19,487 nt of DNA. Source: an uncultured Candidatus Saccharibacteria bacterium (GTDB lineage Bacteria > Patescibacteriota > Minisyncoccia > Portnoybacterales > GWB1-42-6). The notes beneath the pieces were generated by a model, which had not been told where the DNA came from, did no database searches, and worked only from the letters and a program-made list of their open reading frames with translations. Both the position numbers and the translations under genes were made by a program. Location: contig CAZOGP010000004.1 of NCBI GenBank assembly GCA_964579775.1, forward strand, positions 4,752 through 24,238. Direction: 5' to 3'. Positions 2,344 to 18,055 of the stretch are shown here, in pieces; the first letter of the stretch is position 1, and each line of letters begins with the position of its first letter.

Positions 2344-2433
2344 CCTGTCATTCCCGCGAAAGCGGAAATGACAGGTTCTGTGCCACATTGAACCTGTTTA
2401 GGGCCTGGATCCCGGCTCAAGGCCGGGATGACA
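2344..2433. repeat. Short palindromic repeat family 'GTCAT/CTGGAT-YCCCG', intergenic copy A
   Basis: CCTGTCATTCCCGC-gaaa-GCGGAAATGACAGG (2344-2375) and CTGGATCCCGGC-tcaag-GCCGGGATGACA (2405-2433). Related modules lie at 12606-12717, 14033-14116 and 17108-17159. Confidence 0.75.
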
Positions 2434-5565: not shown

Positions 5566-5665
5566 AATAAAATTTACCGGATAACAACCCGAAAAACTCA
5601 TAGTCCCATACACTGGACTATAGGACTATAAATTATTTTCTTTTATCTGGTCTCCGCCTTTCACC

Positions 5666-5706
5666 AAAAAAACCGCCCGGAGCGTAGTCGAGGGGGCGGT
5701 TTTTTA
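5666..5706. terminator. Bidirectional intrinsic terminator between convergent PBP and dciA genes
   Basis: AAAAAAACCGCCC-ggagcgtagtcgaggg-GGGCGGTTTTTT: a GC stem flanked by an A-run and a T-run. Confidence 0.6.
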
Positions 5707-7337: not shown

Positions 7338-8714
7338 TTATTTACTGTAGATCCTTTCTTTAATTAAATTGATCTCTTGTTGGAGGGTTTCGTTTTTTTC
7401 AACCTCTTTGGTTAATTTGTCGCAAGCGTACATAACGGTGGTGTGGTCCCGACCCCCTAATTTTTCACCAATAAAAGGAAAGGATTTTTTTAATTCTTCG
7501 CGCATCAAATACATCGCCACCTGACGAGGATAGACGACTTCCTTTCGGCGGCAGCGGTTTATCAGTTCGCTGGTGTTTATATCATAAAATTCAGCCACGG
7601 CCTGGATGATGTTTTTGTGGTTAGTTAGTTTTTTCGGGGAATTAATGATGTCATTCAGCGCCTTGGCCACCATGGTCAGGTCGGGATTGGCAGAGAGAGA
7701 GCCATTTGAGGCAATAATACGGTTTAGCGCCCCCTCAAGCTCTCGGATATTTTTTTTAACATTAACCGCGACGTAGTTTAAGATTTCGTCGGAGACGGTA
7801 AGCTTTTTTTCGGTGAGCTTGCTCTTTAAAATCGCCAAACGGGTTTCCATGTCTGGTTGGGAAATATCAGCGATCATTCCTCCCTCGAAGCGCGACCGCA
7901 ATCTTTCTTCCAGGGTGGCGATAGCCTTGGGGGGCCGGTCGGAACTTAACACGATCTGCTTATTTTTTTGGTACAGGAAGTTAAAGGTATGGAAAAATTC
8001 TTCCTGGGTTTTTTCCTTTCCGGACAAAAACTGAACATCATCAATGATCAGAACGTCGACTTGCCGGTAACTTTCTTTAAATTCTTCAATTTTGCCGTCG
8101 TGTAGGGAGCTGACGAGCTCGGAGGTGAATTTTTCCGAGCTGACGTATTTTACTTTCTTCTTCTTTTTATATTTTTCAACAATTTCGTTGCCCATGGCTT
8201 GCAGCAGGTGTGTCTTTCCCAGCCCCACGCCGCCGTAGATAAAAAGGGGGTTATAGGCTTCGCCGGGGCTATTGACCACTGCTTTGGCGGCCGCTTGCGC
8301 CAGCTCATTAAACGAGCCGACGATAAAATTACTAAAGGTATATTTTGGATTAAGGTTGGTTTCTTTATCAACCTCGAATTCTTTAAAGGATTGAGTTTGA
8401 TAGGCCAAGCTTTCTTTTTTGGCGGCACCCTTAATCTGTCCCTCGGTCATAACCAATGAAGCGGAGGGGCTGGCGCTGATGATGAACCGTAGTTCTTTAA
8501 TATCGCCGGAAATATTCCGAAGAGATCTTAAAATAAGCTTGTTATATTTATTCTCCAACCACTCCTTACTGAAGCCATTGGGTACGCCAATAATCGCTAT
8601 TCCGTCTTTGTTTTTTAGAATAAAGGTGTCGCGGAACCAGGTAATGAAATTAGCCCGCGAAATATTCAATTCCACTTCTCCGAGGGCTGTTTGCCAGAGT
8701 TGTTCGTTGGTCAT
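7338..8714 (-). CDS. dnaA: Chromosomal replication initiator DnaA
   Basis: Walker A GGVGLGKTHLL, LIIDDVQFL, sensor region and C-terminal DNA-binding KSFPFIGEKLGGRDHTTVMYACDK. The ATG at 8714 gives the typical N-terminus MTNEQLWQTALGEV. An upstream in-frame ATG at 8795 would add 27 Pro/Ala-rich residues and seems less likely. Confidence 0.92.
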   Translation of the reverse strand: MTNEQLWQTALGEVELNISRANFITWFRDTFILKNKDGIAIIGVPNGFSKEWLENKYNKLILRSLRNISGDIKELRFIISASPSASLVMTEGQIKGAAKKESLAYQTQSFKEFEVDKETNLNPKYTFSNFIVGSFNELAQAAAKAVVNSPGEAYNPLFIYGGVGLGKTHLLQAMGNEIVEKYKKKKKVKYVSSEKFTSELVSSLHDGKIEEFKESYRQVDVLIIDDVQFLSGKEKTQEEFFHTFNFLYQKNKQIVLSSDRPPKAIATLEERLRSRFEGGMIADISQPDMETRLAILKSKLTEKKLTVSDEILNYVAVNVKKNIRELEGALNRIIASNGSLSANPDLTMVAKALNDIINSPKKLTNHKNIIQAVAEFYDINTSELINRCRRKEVVYPRQVAMYLMREELKKSFPFIGEKLGGRDHTTVMYACDKLTKEVEKNETLQQEINLIKERIYSK

Positions 8715-8850
8715 ATTATTGATAGCCCCTTGCGCCGGCCCAGGCTGGGCTGGTGTAGGGGCGAAAACAGGGTTGGTCCTTCCTAGTAGTAGCATAGCAC
8801 ATCGTCAAGTTTAAAAAAATATAAAGAAAATAGCAATAAAAAGAGAAATT

Positions 8851-12434: not shown

Positions 12435-13820
12435 ATGAAGCGTCAGCCCTGGCTAACTTTACTTTTGTTGCTTTTAGTCGCCTATCTCCCCTTTCAGGTT
12501 GCCCTGAATTTATCGCCTGATATCGACCTGATGTCCGGCCGGGTTTTGGTTTTGGGGCTGTTTTTTCTTTGGCTGATAAAAGAAACAGATCAACATAAAT
12601 TTTGGTGTCATCCCGGGCTTGCCGCGGGATCCAGGTCCCAAAACAAGTCCGGGGCGACAAAATTCTGGATTCCCGCTGGAGTTTACCCCGTACTGCGATA
12701 CGGGGCGGGAAGGACAGAGGGGTGGGCGCTGGTCTTATTTTTTGTTTTATCCGCAGTTTCAATTTTAGGCGCCGTCAATCAAGCCTGGGGTTGGCGTAAA
12801 CTTTTGTTTTTTGCTTCGATCTTTCCCCTTTTTTGGCTGACCGCGGCGTTGGTAAGAAATAAAGAACACACGAGGAAGATAATTTATATAATAATTGGCA
12901 GCGCGGCCGTTTCCGCCATTGTCGCCTTGGCGCAATTTTTAGCGCAATTTATTTTTGGGCTGGCCGCGGTTATGAGTTTTTGGTCGGTGCATATTTTACC
13001 GCTGTTTTCCGGCGCGGGTTTTGGTTCGCTGGTCGCGTCAAATCCCAGCTGGCTCGTAAATATTGGCGGGCAAACTGTGATGCGGGCCGTTGGGCTGTTT
13101 CCCGATCCGCATATGCTGGCTTTTTATTTGGGCCTCACTTCCCCGTTCGCACTGGCGCTGGCATTTTTTGGCCAGCGGCACCGCGGTATTTTTTTTACTG
13201 TTTACTGCTTGCTGTTAACCGTTTTATTCCTAACCTTTTCTCGAGGCGGCTATTTGGGGCTGTTATTTAGCCTGGCGGTTTTTATTTTTTTTGCCTGGCA
13301 GCGTTTTGGCAACAAGGCCAAAAAGTTTCTTGGCGCGACATCTTTATTGCTGGTAGTGATTTTGCTCTTGGTTGGCTGGCCGGTGGCAACGCGCCTAATA
13401 TCAAGTTTTGATTTTAGGGAAGGTTCAAATATGGGGCGCTTGGTTGTTTGGCAAGATTCCTGGGAGATCATCAAAAAAAGTCCGATTATCGGGGTCGGAC
13501 TGGGTAACTATTCTTTGGCCGTCAACTTCAATCAGGACTACCGCAACGCCGTCACTAGCCATAATTTATATTTGGACCTTTTGGCCGAGACGGGTCTTTT
13601 AGGACTGGCGGCGTGGCTGACGGTTCTGGGGCTGGGGGGTCTAGCCGCGTGGCGAAAGATAGGGTCGGAACCGGTTGTAGCGTTTAGTACACTGTCCGCC
13701 CTGGCTTATTTTGGCGCGCATTCATTTTTTGAGACCGCGATTTTTAATCCGACCGGGCTGGCGTTTTTAATGATAATTTTAGCTCTGTCTGTGGCGGAGA
13801 CCAAAGAAGATGTTCTATAG
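12435..13820 (+). CDS. O-antigen ligase family (Wzy_C domain) membrane protein, paralog 1, carrying an intragenic palindromic repeat
   Basis: Polytopic membrane protein. Motifs are FSRGGYLGLLFSLAVFIFF, GVGLGNYSLAV and SHNLYLDLLAETGLLGLAAWL (Wzy_C/WaaL-like H-N-x-y-L..e.G motif). Confidence 0.8.
   Translation: MKRQPWLTLLLLLLVAYLPFQVALNLSPDIDLMSGRVLVLGLFFLWLIKETDQHKFWCHPGLAAGSRSQNKSGATKFWIPAGVYPVLRYGAGRTEGWALVLFFVLSAVSILGAVNQAWGWRKLLFFASIFPLFWLTAALVRNKEHTRKIIYIIIGSAAVSAIVALAQFLAQFIFGLAAVMSFWSVHILPLFSGAGFGSLVASNPSWLVNIGGQTVMRAVGLFPDPHMLAFYLGLTSPFALALAFFGQRHRGIFFTVYCLLLTVLFLTFSRGGYLGLLFSLAVFIFFAWQRFGNKAKKFLGATSLLLVVILLLVGWPVATRLISSFDFREGSNMGRLVVWQDSWEIIKKSPIIGVGLGNYSLAVNFNQDYRNAVTSHNLYLDLLAETGLLGLAAWLTVLGLGGLAAWRKIGSEPVVAFSTLSALAYFGAHSFFETAIFNPTGLAFLMIILALSVAETKEDVL
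12606..12717. repeat. Palindromic repeat family copy B, inside CDS 12435-13820
   Basis: TGTCATCCCGGGCTTGCCGCGGGATCCAG (12606-12634) and CTGGATTCCCGCTGGAGTTTACCCCGTACTGCGATACGGGGCGGGAAGGACAG (12665-12717). The region is translated as CHPGLAAGSR...WIPAGVYPVLRYGAGRTE. Confidence 0.8.
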
Positions 13821-15213
13821 TCTGCAAACAAACTGGCAATTCGTAATTTTGTTTATCGGCCTTTTGGCCGCGGCTATTATCAACTGGAGAAAACCAGGTT
13901 GCGGCGCCTGGCTGATATTTTTTTTGTCGCCGCTTTATCTGTTAAAAATCGGCAATTGGCCCTTAACTGTCCTGGAGGCGCTGATGTGGTTGTTTATAGG
14001 AGTCTGGCTGGTAAGAAAAGTAAAAAATAGTTGTCATCCCGGGCTTGACCCGGGATCCAGGCCCTGGATTCCCGCCCTTCTTGCATCAGGATCTATGACT
14101 TGCGCGGGAATGACAAGAGGGGTTATTACCAAAGTAATCAAGAACGATATTTTTCTACCACCTTTACTGATTTTAGCTGGCGTTTTTATCTCCGCCGTCT
14201 TTTCGCCCGACCCGAAAACTGGCTTGGGTATTTTAAAATCCTGGTTCTTGGCCCCGATGATTTTTGCTTTTATTCTAAGAGATATTTTTGAGGGCGGTGG
14301 TTTAAAAGAAATGTTTTCGGCGCTATTTGTTTCTTCGGCCGCGGTGGCGGCAATAAGTTTTGTTTATTTGGCGTCCGGACATTTGACTTTTGACGGCCGT
14401 TTAACGGCTTTTTATCTGTCTCCCAATCACCTGGCTATGTATCTGGCGCCGGGGTTGCTGGTCGGCTTGGCTTTATGGTCGGACGCGAAAAAAACACACC
14501 AAAGAATCTTATTGTTTATTGGTTATTGTTTATTGGCTACTGTTTTATACGCCACTTATTCTTTTGGCGCCTGGCTTGGTCTGGCCGCGGCCGCGGTTTT
14601 AATTTTATTTTATCTTTGGCGTTTAAAATTAATGAGCCGTCGTCAATTGTTAATGGTTATTTGTTTATCGGTAATTTTATTTATATTTGTGCTTGGCCAG
14701 CAGTTGTTCGACGTAAATAACGATAAGCTATCTAATCTATTCTCCTCTCCCCGCTCCTCCTGGCAATCGCGCCTGATGGTCTGGCAGGCGGCTACCCAGA
14801 TCTTAAAAGACCACGGGTTTCTAGGGATCGGGCCGGGGCTGTTCCAGAACTATTATTTGGAGTACCAGCAATATTTTTCTGTGCCGTATTTGGAGTGGGC
14901 CGTGCCCCAGCCCCATAATTTATTTTTGGCCTGGTGGCTGCAAGCGGGCCTGGCAGGGTTGGTTGGTTTCTTTTGGCTACTGATAGTTTTTTTCCGACGG
15001 GGATTCAAGACACTAAAAAAACCCTCCTTCGTCCCACTAGGCGGGACTTCGGAGGGCAAGCAAAATCACCTCTGGATCATTATTTTAATGGCCGTAATGA
15101 CGTATTTTTTGGTCCACGGTCTAGTCGATACTACTTTCTGGAAAAATGACCTGGCGCTGATCTGGTGGGTTATTGTATTTTTAGGCTCCAGAGCAGGCCG
15201 TCGCGTTTATTGA
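13810..15213 (+). CDS. O-antigen ligase family (Wzy_C domain) membrane protein, paralog 2, carrying an intragenic palindromic repeat
   Basis: Polytopic membrane protein. Motifs are YSFGAWLGLAAAAVLILF, GIGPGLFQNYY and PHNLFLAWWLQAGLAGLVGFFWLL. It overlaps the preceding gene by 11 nt. Confidence 0.8.
   Translation: MFYSLQTNWQFVILFIGLLAAAIINWRKPGCGAWLIFFLSPLYLLKIGNWPLTVLEALMWLFIGVWLVRKVKNSCHPGLDPGSRPWIPALLASGSMTCAGMTRGVITKVIKNDIFLPPLLILAGVFISAVFSPDPKTGLGILKSWFLAPMIFAFILRDIFEGGGLKEMFSALFVSSAAVAAISFVYLASGHLTFDGRLTAFYLSPNHLAMYLAPGLLVGLALWSDAKKTHQRILLFIGYCLLATVLYATYSFGAWLGLAAAAVLILFYLWRLKLMSRRQLLMVICLSVILFIFVLGQQLFDVNNDKLSNLFSSPRSSWQSRLMVWQAATQILKDHGFLGIGPGLFQNYYLEYQQYFSVPYLEWAVPQPHNLFLAWWLQAGLAGLVGFFWLLIVFFRRGFKTLKKPSFVPLGGTSEGKQNHLWIIILMAVMTYFLVHGLVDTTFWKNDLALIWWVIVFLGSRAGRRVY
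14033..14116. repeat. Palindromic repeat family copy C, inside CDS 13810-15213
   Basis: TGTCATCCCGGGCTTGACCCGGGATCCAG (14033-14061) and CTGGATTCCCGC...GCGGGAATGACA (14065-14116). The region is translated as CHPGLDPGSRPWIPALLASGSMTCAGMT. Confidence 0.8.
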
Positions 15214-16407: not shown

Positions 16408-17076
16408 TTATTGGCAGGACGTACTGTCTGGGACGGACCTGGCAATACAGTTGGCCACCCCAAAAAAAAGCGGGCAAGCGTCTTTTGTTTTGTAGCAATT
16501 ATTTTTATCACACCAGCAAGTTTTAATTTTTTCCGTAGCAGGCGGCGGCCCCTGGCAATAGCAGCTATTGTTTTCAGCGGTAAATACGATGGGATTTGGC
16601 GCACACTTAGCGGTGCAGGCCTCTATGGTGGTTTGTTTAGTCAAGTAGGTTTGAGGCGTGACTGACGGTGATGCCGGCGCGGCGACATTGCCGAGCGGAG
16701 AAATTGATGGCGATAAATTCGTCAAACTCGGGTCAATGGTGGCCAAGATCAGCCAGGAACAGAGCAGCAAGGCGATGCCCATCAGCGCGCCAACGATCCA
16801 GTCTTTAGCCTTTTGCGTAGTCCCAACGGACGGGGCCAGCATGTAATTTATCCCGCCCCAAACAATCGCGCCCACCGCCAGGAACCCGGCCAGGGATAAA
16901 CCGAAAATGAATAGATACCGGACATAGACGCCGGGGTCGGAGACGATTGGGGAGGTCATGCCGGGTAGACTAATTTCAACTTTGTAGGCGGCGTGTCCAA
17001 TAGTCGCGTAGAAAAGTAAAGATAAAGCCTCGAAGATAGTTAGAAAAATTTTTTTATGATTTGAAAATAAATTCAT
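16408..17076 (-). CDS. Exported VirB2/TrbC-like two-helix pilin module fused to a 99-aa, 10-cysteine C-terminal domain
   Basis: Signal peptide with GHA|A. Hydrophobic hairpin YLFIFGLSLAGFLAVGAIVWGGINYM - APSVGTTQKAKDW - IVGALMGIALLLCSWLILATI. The C-terminus holds 10 Cys (EACTAKC..SCYC..TCWC..NNC..DAC..ANC..STC). Confidence 0.65.
   Translation of the reverse strand: MNLFSNHKKIFLTIFEALSLLFYATIGHAAYKVEISLPGMTSPIVSDPGVYVRYLFIFGLSLAGFLAVGAIVWGGINYMLAPSVGTTQKAKDWIVGALMGIALLLCSWLILATIDPSLTNLSPSISPLGNVAAPASPSVTPQTYLTKQTTIEACTAKCAPNPIVFTAENNSCYCQGPPPATEKIKTCWCDKNNCYKTKDACPLFFGVANCIARSVPDSTSCQ
16709..16968. repeat. 260-bp direct repeat, copy 1 (100% identical to 17673-17932)
   Basis: Base-by-base comparison shows identity from GGCGATAAATTCG... 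to ...CATGCCGGGTAG. The flanks diverge immediately on both sides. Confidence 0.95.
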
Positions 17077-17107: not shown

Positions 17108-17159
17108 CTGGATTCCCGCCGGAGTTTACCCCGTACTTGATACGGGGCGGGAATGACAG
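17108..17159. repeat. Palindromic repeat family copy D, intercistronic between the two pilin-like genes
   Basis: CTGGATTCCCGCCGGAGTTTACCCCGTACTTGATACGGGGCGGGAATGACAG forms a nested hairpin (ATTCCCGCC/GGCGGGAAT outer, CCCCGTA/TACGGGG inner). It is near-identical to 12665-12717. Confidence 0.8.
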
Positions 17160-17170
17160 AAGGCCTTACT

Positions 17171-18055
17171 TTAGACGCAATTGGCTTTAACACTGTAATG
17201 GATGTGGTCGGTGTGGCTGGCGCAGCTTTTGCTTTTTGAAGCGTTTTGTCCCCCGCCGGCGCGGCAGTATTGGGGAAATCCGGCGTAGAATAGCTGGTCA
17301 ACGCATTTGTCTTGACTTAACGTTTGCATAACTTGCTGTTTTTGAGAGTCGTTTAAATTAGAAACCCGGATATCGGCCGCTCTCCCCGTGCAGTGGGTGG
17401 ATGAGCCGCAAGCGGCGCCCGGCACGCAGGTGTCAGTCGCAGAACAACCGTGGCTGCCTGTTGTTTCAGTTATTGTAACTTCAACCGGAAGCGAACCAAG
17501 ATCTTTTACCAGGGTGTTGTTTACTTGTCCGGTTTGAATGTCTTGGCAAATCTTGGCGGTTTTGCATTTTATTTCTTGCGCGCCGGTTATGGGCGGGGTG
17601 ACAGCTCCCTCTGTTAGGCCGGAATCCGGGGGGCTTGGAGGTTCGGGGACGGTTACGATTTCTAATTGGGTGGGCGATAAATTCGTCAAACTCGGGTCAA
17701 TGGTGGCCAAGATCAGCCAGGAACAGAGCAGCAAGGCGATGCCCATCAGCGCGCCAACGATCCAGTCTTTAGCCTTTTGCGTAGTCCCAACGGACGGGGC
17801 CAGCATGTAATTTATCCCGCCCCAAACAATCGCGCCCACCGCCAGGAACCCGGCCAGGGATAAACCGAAAATGAATAGATACCGGACATAGACGCCGGGG
17901 TCGGAGACGATTGGGGAGGTCATGCCGGGTAGTTTTATCTCTAGCGTATAGGCCAGGGCACTTGGAGCGATAAAAAAAATAACAGATAATAGGCTTAAGA
18001 AAATAAATTTTAATTTTAGAAGAGTCTTTAGCAAGAAGGTTTTACTTAATTTCAA
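17171..18055 (-). CDS. Exported VirB2/TrbC-like pilin module fused to a Hedgehog/DD-peptidase-fold (LAS, peptidase M15-like) zinc hydrolase domain
   Basis: Signal peptide with ALA|Y and the same 87-aa two-helix module as 16408-17076, then a Pro-rich linker PEPPSPPDSG. The C-terminal domain has VEVTITETTGSHG...STHCTGRAADIRV (S-x-H-x-x-G-x-A-x-D, i.e. H-x6-D) and DHIHYSVKA (H-x-H). The start is TTG at 18055, with no in-frame ATG before residue 45. Confidence 0.7.
   Translation of the reverse strand: MKLSKTFLLKTLLKLKFIFLSLLSVIFFIAPSALAYTLEIKLPGMTSPIVSDPGVYVRYLFIFGLSLAGFLAVGAIVWGGINYMLAPSVGTTQKAKDWIVGALMGIALLLCSWLILATIDPSLTNLSPTQLEIVTVPEPPSPPDSGLTEGAVTPPITGAQEIKCKTAKICQDIQTGQVNNTLVKDLGSLPVEVTITETTGSHGCSATDTCVPGAACGSSTHCTGRAADIRVSNLNDSQKQQVMQTLSQDKCVDQLFYAGFPQYCRAGGGQNASKSKSCASHTDHIHYSVKANCV
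17673..17932. repeat. 260-bp direct repeat, copy 2 (100% identical to 16709-16968)
   Basis: See copy 1. The offset between copies is exactly 964 nt. Confidence 0.95.

Follow-up and report, generated by a model that had tools for sequence, protein, structure and literature searches.

Rickettsia palindromic elements (RPEs) are short palindromic repeats resembling transposable elements of the miniature inverted-repeat type (MITEs), which occur between genes as well as in-frame within unrelated genes (Ogata et al., 2000, Science 290:347; Ogata et al., 2002; as summarised in PMC10969869). The same summary includes intragenic copies of enterobacterial repetitive intergenic consensus (ERIC) and other small enterobacterial mobile sequences (Delihas, 2007) and cyanobacterial MITEs located in open reading frames (ORFs; Wolk, 2010). 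A second group of hairpins comprises the Neisseria Transformation Sequence (NTS), CGTCATTCCCGCGMAVGCGGGAATCYRG, which encompasses dRS3, and the degenerate Ssn-related motif (SRM), HGTCWYN(0-2)YYVSBRHN(0-5)WNVSBRGN(0-2)RNCYNB (PMC11893778, Nat Commun 2025). The GIY-YIG protein SsnA, of ~94 amino acids, binds and cuts the single-stranded hairpin, an activity that depends on the stem and the flanks but not on the loop. The repeats surround genes and modulate transformation, and the ssn gene itself is typically flanked by repeats in the manner of an insertion sequence (PMC11893778). The text of that paper mentions neither 'intragenic' copies nor Patescibacteria. Here we describe two elements, A and B, which are built from hairpin units of the NTS/SRM type and lie in-frame within two neighbouring genes for O-antigen-ligase-like membrane proteins. 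Both are contained in a stretch of 19,487 nucleotides (the window) from the contig CAZOGP010000004.1 of an uncultured Patescibacterium.

Elements A and B are most probably tolerated in-frame insertions of a mobile NTS/SRM-type hairpin repeat, similar to an Ssn cassette that lacks its gene, in a permissive cytoplasmic loop. This reading is carried by the family identity of the repeat units, by the absence of the inserts from most orthologues, by the homology of the two loops and by the recurrent use of the same loop in relatives.

Hairpin repeats in a tandem pair of Wzy_C genes

The two host proteins share 25% identity, and both match PF04932. In an AlphaFold model of paralog 1 (predicted template modelling score 0.85) the best match in the PDB is WaaL (7tpg_B; E 8e-7, TM-score 0.54-0.61), followed by FtsW and RodA; thus, a Wzy_C domain and a predicted WaaL-like multi-helix fold both point to the Wzy_C/WaaL-like ligase family. 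Four copies of one repeat family are present in the window, of which A and B lie in-frame within the Wzy_C genes and C and D are intergenic. Their units were located with a custom hairpin scan, and the features are as follows:

12435..13820, plus strand: paralog 1, a Wzy_C/O-antigen-ligase-like polytopic membrane protein (461 aa; PF04932, E 3.6e-26) with element A inside it
13810..15213, plus strand: paralog 2, a Wzy_C protein (467 aa; PF04932, E 6.1e-21) in which element B and one more in-frame hairpin are located
12606..12716, plus strand: element A in paralog 1, an in-frame composite of three hairpin units encoding CHPGLAAGSRSQNKSGATKFWIPAGVYPVLRYGAGRT
12606..12635, plus strand: unit A1, a forward NTS/SRM-type hairpin, TGTCATCCCGGGCTTGCCGCGGGATCCAGG (repeat-finder matches, hairpin scan)
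12636..12659, minus strand: unit A2, a degenerate reversed unit with the reverse complement TGTCGCCCCGGACTTGTTTTGGGA (counterpart in locus L019: TGTCGCTCTGAACTTGTCTCAGGG)
12665..12716, minus strand: unit A3, a reversed unit (CTGGATTCCCGC...GCGGGAAGGACA) with a nested hairpin at 12686-12705 in its loop (match to intergenic copy D)
14032..14115, plus strand: element B in paralog 2, an in-frame doublet of inverted units encoding CHPGLDPGSRPWIPALLASGSMTCAGMT (orthologous doublet in locus L122)
14032..14061, plus strand: unit B1, TGTCATCCCGGGCTTGACCCGGGATCCAGG (exact match to the published SRM pattern)
14064..14115, minus strand: unit B2, reversed, with a loop that is enlarged and an in-frame ATG at its right end (hairpin scan, orthologue comparison)
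2346..2433, minus strand: element C, an intergenic doublet after ruvC (repeat finder; fold z-score -4.9)
17108..17158, plus strand: element D, an intergenic single reversed unit with a nested hairpin, between two pilin-like genes (repeat finder)
15022..15056, plus strand: a second, unrelated in-frame hairpin in paralog 2, CCCTCCttcGTCCCactaggcGGGACttcGGAGGG (CCCTCC..GTCCC..GGGAC..GGAGGG), encoding FVPLGGTSEGK (fold z-score -3.6)

A and B share a stretch of 42 nt with 83% identity; each is 84-94% complementary to copy C at 2397-2434, and D, the intergenic half-copy at 17108-17163, matches the right half of A with 92-97% identity. An earlier note, made from the letters of the window, had quoted peptides for the two inserts that are exactly those encoded by both ORFs. 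It had also called both genes O-antigen-ligase paralogs, as the PF04932 matches bear out, had assigned the inserts to the family of the intergenic copies, in agreement with the repeat finder, and had stated that the reading frames stay open, which frame translation of the elements confirms; the start of the paralog-2 insert is shifted from 14033 to 14032.

Read in its own orientation, the basic unit consists of TGTCAT, a GC stem of 6-7 bp, a short loop (often CTTGA), the complementary stem and ATCCAGG, and clusters of two or three such units in opposed orientations make up an element, while D corresponds to the last unit of A on its own. GC stems of 6-7 bp are seen in A1, B1, B2, C and D, in keeping with the imperfect palindromes of 20-50 nt, predicted to fold into hairpins, that mark NTS/SRM repeats. 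The sequence TGTCAT...GGGATCCAGG or its reverse complement is found in A1, B1, B2, both units of C, and D, while A3 has GGACA where TGACA is expected. The termini of the elements, TGTCATYCCSG and CSGGRATGACA, are mutual inverted repeats. The elements fold with -24 to -56 kcal/mol (z-scores -1.8 to -4.9), and the inserts have ~60% G+C as compared to 48% in the window. An Rfam scan of the whole window with E<=1 returned nothing at any of the repeat copies. Among the loci fetched for comparison (L numbers), the three-unit architecture of A recurs in L019, a metagenome-assembled genome (MAG) of Patescibacteria, in which an element is 84% identical to C over 90 nt. The nested form seen in A3 recurs in L044 (Portnoybacteria MAG) with a compensatory change in the nested stem from CCCCGTA/TACGGGG to CCCCGCA/TGCGGGG. 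In the window the nested hairpin CCCCGTAC..GATACGGGG (12686-12705) is housed by the loop of the right-hand unit, whereas in the orthologous L121 insert it is the left-hand unit whose loop contains it; hairpin loops may themselves be points of insertion or exchange.

At the sequence level the unit matches the repeats of the NTS/SRM type, while cleavage of the window copies by an Ssn enzyme is putative. The strict SRM pattern has a single match in the window, at 14032-14060 in B1, against 0.085 expected from dinucleotide shuffles; the other window units miss the pattern through larger loops or single stem positions. When one mismatch is allowed, the NTS is found in the reversed unit of the orthologous L122 insert and in the uvrC insert of L019, and has no match in the window. 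A scan with the 30-mer pattern in one genome per species gave at least 119 stretches, which, among the matches listed, are spread over many Patescibacteria lineages, Alpha-, Beta- and Gammaproteobacteria, Desulfobacterota, SAR324, Binatia, Dehalococcoidia, Nitrospinota, Bacteroidota and others. In two of these genomes the exact 30-mer of B1 and an inverted unit flank a GIY-YIG gene, namely in L077 (1468-1870, Moraniibacteriota MAG) and in L029 (1435-1875, alphaproteobacterial MAG). The ORF encodes ~100 aa in both cases and matches the Pfam domain PF01541 with E about 1e-15, as a candidate for the single-domain GIY-YIG class of ssn genes (cd10448). A GIY-YIG gene near the 30-mer is also present in L104, L119, L038 and L114. 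The likeness of the L077 and L029 cassettes indicates a module of hairpin and nuclease common to very distant phyla, and since the same 30-mer and an inverted unit flank the GIY-YIG ORF, the doublets of the window look like this cassette without the gene. When the L077 GIY-YIG protein was searched against PDB sequences, the only matches were spurious ones to WDR5 and a weak one to UPF0213. NCBIfam had no match for the GIY-YIG ORFs or for the insert peptides in several frames, which means that no link to the annotated RPE-domain models was obtained, and is not evidence against one.

The locus with both inserts was also assembled in ENA ERZ27293347, ERZ27293399 and ERZ27293400 with 99.8-99.9% identity and zero indels, and its upstream part is also covered by a JGI contig. 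Paralog 1 is called as a 461-aa gene in the three independent ENA assemblies, though the exact protein was not among the matches of the homologue search; the database protein P0121 is 100% identical to paralog 2. Since both inserts were recovered in independent assemblies that agree at ~99.9% identity, an assembly artefact is ruled out.

Age of the inserts and the loop they occupy

Most orthologues lack the inserts. The loop of paralog 1 comprises 21 residues in most of its 30 closest homologues versus 50 in the window, and that of paralog 2 17-24 residues in most of 29 closest homologues versus 46. A conserved family motif is thereby ruled out, and gene conversion between the paralogs is ruled out by their identity of only 25%. 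In the syntenic locus L123 (dnaA-rnpA-yidD-yidC-jag-flippase-Wzy_C(438)-Wzy_C(429)) neither gene of the tandem pair carries an insert, and the insertions therefore postdate the tandem duplication. In closer relatives the NTS/SRM-type family is present in one of the two genes each, i.e. in paralog 2 only in L122, where a canonical doublet orthologous to element B sits at the same codon, and in paralog 1 only in L121, whose paralog 2 is occupied at the same loop by an unrelated hairpin (CCCTCC...GGGAGG). As judged from these alignments, A and B are lineage-specific, derived in-frame insertions.

In element B only one of the three sense frames is open, which is the one used by paralog 2, while in element A all three are open; in intergenic copy C the 'CHPGL' frame is interrupted by a stop. 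Whichever way a unit is oriented, two of its three frames are free of stops, so that read-through after insertion of a multiple of three nucleotides is not improbable. In four strain-level assemblies both Wzy_C frames are uninterrupted over their whole length. The regions N-terminal and C-terminal of the insert are conserved to a similar degree, with 62.2 versus 61.4% amino acid identity for paralog 2 (window and L122) and 72.7 versus 69.9% for paralog 1 (window and L121), and invariant family residues such as Y17, L18, P19, Q21, N25 and D31 are located upstream of the insert. The upstream segment is thus still under constraint, and its being as conserved as the downstream one speaks against both a pseudogene and a downstream start of the protein. 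The peptides predicted to span the insert junctions include FWCHPGLAAGSR, SGATKFWIPAGVYPVLR and NSCHPGLDPGSRPWIPALLASGSMTCAGMTR. Nothing points to an acquired function of the insert peptide, nor was a sign of exaptation found; the conservation pattern described below implicates the DNA hairpin instead of the peptide.

The two insert-bearing loops are homologous according to profile alignment. When profiles without the inserts were aligned with hhalign (probability 99.8%), the segment LFFIWLISEFYQNKI of paralog 1 was paired with LFVGAWLVKKIINHE of paralog 2, so that the helix preceding the insert corresponds to the second helix in paralog 1 and to the third in paralog 2, which has one extra N-terminal helix; the basic loops that follow these helices also align. 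The insert begins 9 (paralog 1) or 6 (paralog 2) residues past the end of the helix. The earlier note was thus right in placing both inserts in the homologous loop, and its position after the second N-terminal hydrophobic segment holds for paralog 1, while for paralog 2 it is the third segment. Of the two explanations it offered, an element present before the duplication is contradicted by the insert-free tandem pair of L123, and the recurrent insertion target is favoured, in the sense of a recurrent or permissive site that has been remodelled repeatedly, also by unrelated hairpins; the alignment of orthologues that it had suggested gave the loop lengths above.

In the paralog-1 model the insert (residues 57-93) has low predicted local distance difference test scores of 48-60 and lies between the confident helices 34-55 and 94-110, so that the loop is predicted to be disordered. 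When the helices are counted from the N-terminus, the alternate loops are rich in Lys and Arg (KETDQHK, RNKEHTRK, GQRHRG, QRFGNKAKK, RKIGSE), while the conserved catalytic-type loop (GSNMGR...TSHNLY) comes to lie on the other side, which places the insert on the predicted cytoplasmic face. For a survey of insertions about 115 homologues per paralog were aligned (119 for paralog 1, 114 for paralog 2), and segments of at least 10 residues outside the core columns were recorded. The sites in paralog 1 are:

core columns 55-66, window residues 52-95: the insert loop, filled in 12 sequences
core column 114, window residue 143
core columns 214-222, window residues 243-251
core columns 260-266, window residues 289-295
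core column 383, window residue 412
core column 430: C-terminal tail

All of these lie in Lys/Arg-rich loops that would be cytoplasmic or in the C-terminal tail. In paralog 2 the homologous loop is filled in 22 sequences and the last putatively cytoplasmic loop in 34 of the 114 homologues; a single insertion falls in a loop predicted to be periplasmic, and all others in putatively cytoplasmic loops or the tail. The unrelated hairpin at 15022-15056 sits in this last loop, which is an insertion hot spot with diverse contents. The contents of the sites include variants of the NTS/SRM family (CHPGL..GSR, WIPA..GMT, CHSRESGNP, NKFGMT, RFRGND) and unrelated hairpin-type peptides (SLLTFLCEREE, SPSRVREGEKKRGW, PLYERGDEF). 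In neighbour-joining trees of the core columns one insert-bearing clade surrounds the window sequence for each paralog, and isolated insert-bearing tips (P0007, P0017, P0006) are found beside insert-free sisters, apart from the window clade. The paralog-2 clade itself has both insert-free and differently filled members, and within the window clade the same site holds CHPGL/WIPA/GMT, CHSRESGNP, RFRGND or the unrelated CCCTCC...GGGAGG hairpin. The scattered tips and differing contents therefore indicate several gains, replacements or losses at one site, which fits a permissive or recurrently struck loop.

Intragenic copies are not restricted to this locus. In the fetched loci 24 of 128 pattern matches (19%) lie within a frame that is open for at least 50 codons on each side, as compared to 69% of random positions; the family is therefore mainly intergenic, yet has a real intragenic fraction. 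In-frame copies in five Pfam-recognised genes of other Patescibacteria and Proteobacteria were confirmed:

L019, 7699-7786: UvrC
L109, 3203-3232: RsmA/KsgA
L024, 3824-3853: another Wzy_C protein
L072, 2660-2689: GT4 glycosyltransferase
L080, 3735-3764: QueA

The UvrC protein of L019 has further repeat-like segments of low complexity.

Origin and persistence of the inserts

In the explanation we favour, that of tolerated insertions, the inverted unit pair would be the remainder of a unit(+)-ssn-unit(-) cassette devoid of its ssn gene, and the window copies would behave like miniature gene-less derivatives, similar to a MITE or a REPIN (a doublet of repetitive extragenic palindromic, REP, sequences). 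They may have spread as single-stranded DNA hairpins with an Ssn-type enzyme acting in trans, and would have landed in the short, Lys/Arg-rich and hence A-rich loop after the helix that is homologous between the paralogs. There they could persist as the loop is structurally permissive, the units are stop-free in two of three frames and the inserted length preserves the frame. Most likely, translation of the insert lengthens the cytoplasmic loop by a disordered stretch that has no function of its own. That the same loop was struck in both paralogs would reflect how very few positions can take up an additional 30-40 residues, perhaps together with a preference for A/T-rich targets.

Several observations weigh against this explanation. 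B1 is the only one of about eight window units that conforms to the strict SRM pattern, and no GIY-YIG gene was found among the small ORFs of the window with Pfam, or in the window and the longer strain contigs with a hidden Markov model built from six GIY-YIG ORFs. No target-site duplication was recognised by eye at nine junctions, and no clean empty-site junction could be defined, with the ancestral loop seemingly partly replaced. Translation through the inserts is deduced from the open frames and the equal conservation of the N- and C-terminal parts, and the cytoplasmic position of the loop from predicted helices and the positive-inside rule. Finally, the inserts are better conserved than their hosts in the alignments, which is unlike a purely neutral passenger. 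In paralog 2 of the window and L122, 58 of 60 alignable insert positions are identical (96.7%) versus 70.6-71.2% of the flanking coding DNA, and in paralog 1 of the window and L121 the values are 88.5% (alignable positions) versus 70.5-73%. The differences within the inserts of these pairs are mostly indels in loops and spacers. Such excess conservation would result from selection at the DNA level, from homogenisation against other genomic copies, or from recent site-specific re-insertion.

It is possible, though we think it rather unlikely, that the loop-coding DNA is an active insertion target, recognised by its sequence or structure, instead of a place in which tolerated insertions survive. 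The elements of the window and of L122 are located at exactly the same codon at both junctions, as a single ancestry would also predict, and P0124 and P0127 hold a different unit variant at that codon. At nine copies the sequence to the left is rich in A/T and has T as its usual last letter (e.g. AAAAATAGT or GTATTGTATTTT, each directly followed by TGTCAT), and cytoplasmic loops are rich in Lys and hence in A; however, a consensus target was not found, nor was a duplication. An existing hairpin may attract further units, as the nested hairpin in different arms in the window and in L121 suggests, but unrelated repeat families that lack a common targeting mechanism strike the same loop, and the intragenic copies of the cross-phylum sample are located in varied genes.

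Doubtful, too, is a scenario in which the hairpins are kept for a function of the DNA, either as Ssn sites that limit recombination or transformation across the glycan locus or as mRNA structures that tune translation, with the peptide as a by-product. Arrangements of the type NTS-gene-NTS act in the first of these ways in Neisseria, and A and B bracket most of paralog 1, while C and D bracket the whole block from dnaA to the pilin genes. The stems and the TGTCAT/ATCC flanks are identical between the window and L122, with host genes that are ~71% identical at the DNA level, and stem pairing in L044 is preserved by the compensatory change. As between orthologues, variation between strains is mostly confined to loops and spacers. 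Of the 16 differences between the window and L125 over 15.5 kb, four are located in the loop of unit B2 or at its 3' end and leave the stems untouched, and the frame remains open with all single-nucleotide polymorphisms (SNPs) of B2 among strains (window versus L125/L126: 14077, 14100, 14102, 14114). Conserved stems and flanks with free loops mirror the determinants of SsnA activity (PMC11893778). However, recent insertion or gene conversion among genomic copies gives the same conservation, most orthologues manage without an insert, unrelated hairpin families in the same loop of relatives fit tolerance better, and no Ssn gene came to light in the window or the longer strain contigs.

A more far-reaching proposal is that intragenic NTS/SRM hairpins are selected as sites for GIY-YIG Ssn enzymes, with the host genes being dual-coded and the doublets being non-autonomous members of a new, GIY-YIG-driven class of hairpin transposons that settle preferentially in A-rich DNA coding for cytoplasmic loops. 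We regard this as speculative and improbable. If it were true, stretches of essential or cell-surface genes in Patescibacteria and other phyla would be both a protein loop and a single-strand nuclease site, which would control recombination or transformation or mobilise the element.

That the insertions broke the genes, leaving recent pseudogenes or a truncated protein that starts downstream of the element, is very unlikely. Element B has an in-frame ATG at its right end (14109-14111, GGA ATG ACA), from which the database homologue P0139 is called, and hairpins of -36 to -56 kcal/mol could impede ribosomes. Against this, the frames are fully open not only in the four strain-level assemblies, but also in insert-bearing orthologues at 60-70% identity, the N-terminal segment with its invariant residues diverges no faster than the remainder, no Shine-Dalgarno sequence is located at a usable distance from the internal ATG, and element A has AGG in place of that ATG. 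An element that was already in the loop of the ancestral gene and was retained in both copies after tandem duplication would account for the homologous loop, the same reading phase (TGT CAT CCC GGG) and the same starting peptide CHPGL, but this is extremely improbable given the insert-free pair of L123, the occupation of only one paralog each in L122 and L121, and paralogs that are 25% identical with units that are ~83-100% identical to each other and to copies from other phyla.

Genomic context and comparison with known systems

The source organism is a tiny bacterium from groundwater, whose source samples correspond to ENA ERZ27293347, ERZ27293399 and ERZ27293400 and to JGI 3300025150. The gene order in the window is yebC, ruvC, a class A penicillin-binding protein (PBP) gene, dciA, dnaN, dnaA, rnpA, yidD, yidC and jag, followed by a Polysacc_synt flippase gene, the Wzy_C tandem pair, an unannotated gene and two type-IV-pilin-like genes, which is typical of the origin region of Patescibacteria (candidate phyla radiation, CPR). 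The dnaA gene (7338-8795, minus strand) encodes 485 aa here and on two contigs, and 458 aa on L125 without an indel between them, which is probably a matter of the start-codon call or a SNP. A direct repeat of 281 nt with 97% identity (16709-16989 and 17673-17953) lies within the adjacent T4SS-pilin-like genes (16408-17076 and 17171-18055, minus strand) and suggests a recent duplication or gene conversion between the two. An intergenic element of 137 bp at 2523-2659 has perfect terminal inverted repeats of 20 nt (CCCCCACACCTAATCAGGAA / TTCCTGATTAGGTGTGGGGG), folds with -60 kcal/mol (z-score -7.2), has no Rfam match and is confined to the contigs of this organism among the loci compared. In the intergenic region after the PBP gene a strain length polymorphism of ~72 bp is seen between the window (5566-5666) and L127 (5926-5956), and the window version holds a small direct/inverted motif (ATAGTCC...GGACTATAGGACTATA).

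With these inserts, selfish DNA inside genes, for which Rickettsia is the classical case, is extended to Patescibacteria, and the phenomenon is tied to the NTS/SRM family, whose partner enzyme Ssn was characterised only in 2025. They explain the low-complexity segments CHPGL..GSR, WIPA..GMT and SRESGNP that inflate and confuse protein annotation, alignment and structure prediction in the CPR, and provide a natural map of insertion tolerance in a WaaL-like membrane enzyme, which comprises almost exclusively loops that are predicted to be cytoplasmic. Since the inserts are more conserved than their hosts and vary mainly in the hairpin loops, selection at the DNA level inside a coding sequence becomes testable. 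The loci also offer material for asking whether the unit-ssn-unit cassette is mobile and has given rise to miniature derivatives.

REPs, which also form bacterial interspersed mosaic elements (BIMEs) and REPINs and are associated with tyrosine transposases (RAYTs), resemble the elements described here in having short hairpin units arranged as inverted doublets and mosaics, in the conservation of structure over loop, and in a single-copy enzyme gene that is flanked by units. The enzyme is of the GIY-YIG type here, whereas theirs is a Y1 HUH transposase, and a GTAG-type head is absent from our units. REPs are extragenic by definition. The intragenic ERIC sequences and cyanobacterial MITEs, as portrayed in PMC10969869, are likewise MITE-like repeats with open frames that are fused in-frame to host ORFs. 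They belong to other sequence families and other taxa. To our knowledge, recurrent strikes at homologous loops of paralogs have not been reported for them.

The likeness to RPEs, as far as these are described in PMC10969869, is closer, since both are stop-free in the frame that is used, are located at sites thought to be compatible with fold and function, and occur in a small, host-dependent genome. By contrast, the elements described here consist of NTS/SRM units in clusters of opposed orientation and 50-110 bp, as compared to about 150 bp for RPEs, and their host is a Patescibacterium, in which they reside in putatively cytoplasmic loops of polytopic membrane proteins, with the same loop struck in two paralogs and repeatedly in orthologues. 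With the NTS, SRM and dRS3 repeats they share the oriented hairpin with a (C/T)GTCAT 5' flank, GC stem, free loop and ATCC 3' flank (PMC11893778), the distribution over many phyla, and, in other genomes (L077 and L029), the cassette with an identical 30-mer. They differ in having intragenic copies, while the published repeats surround genes, and in the absence of a visible ssn gene in the window. RPEs are thus the closest precedent for the phenomenon, and the NTS/SRM repeats are the closest family for the element.

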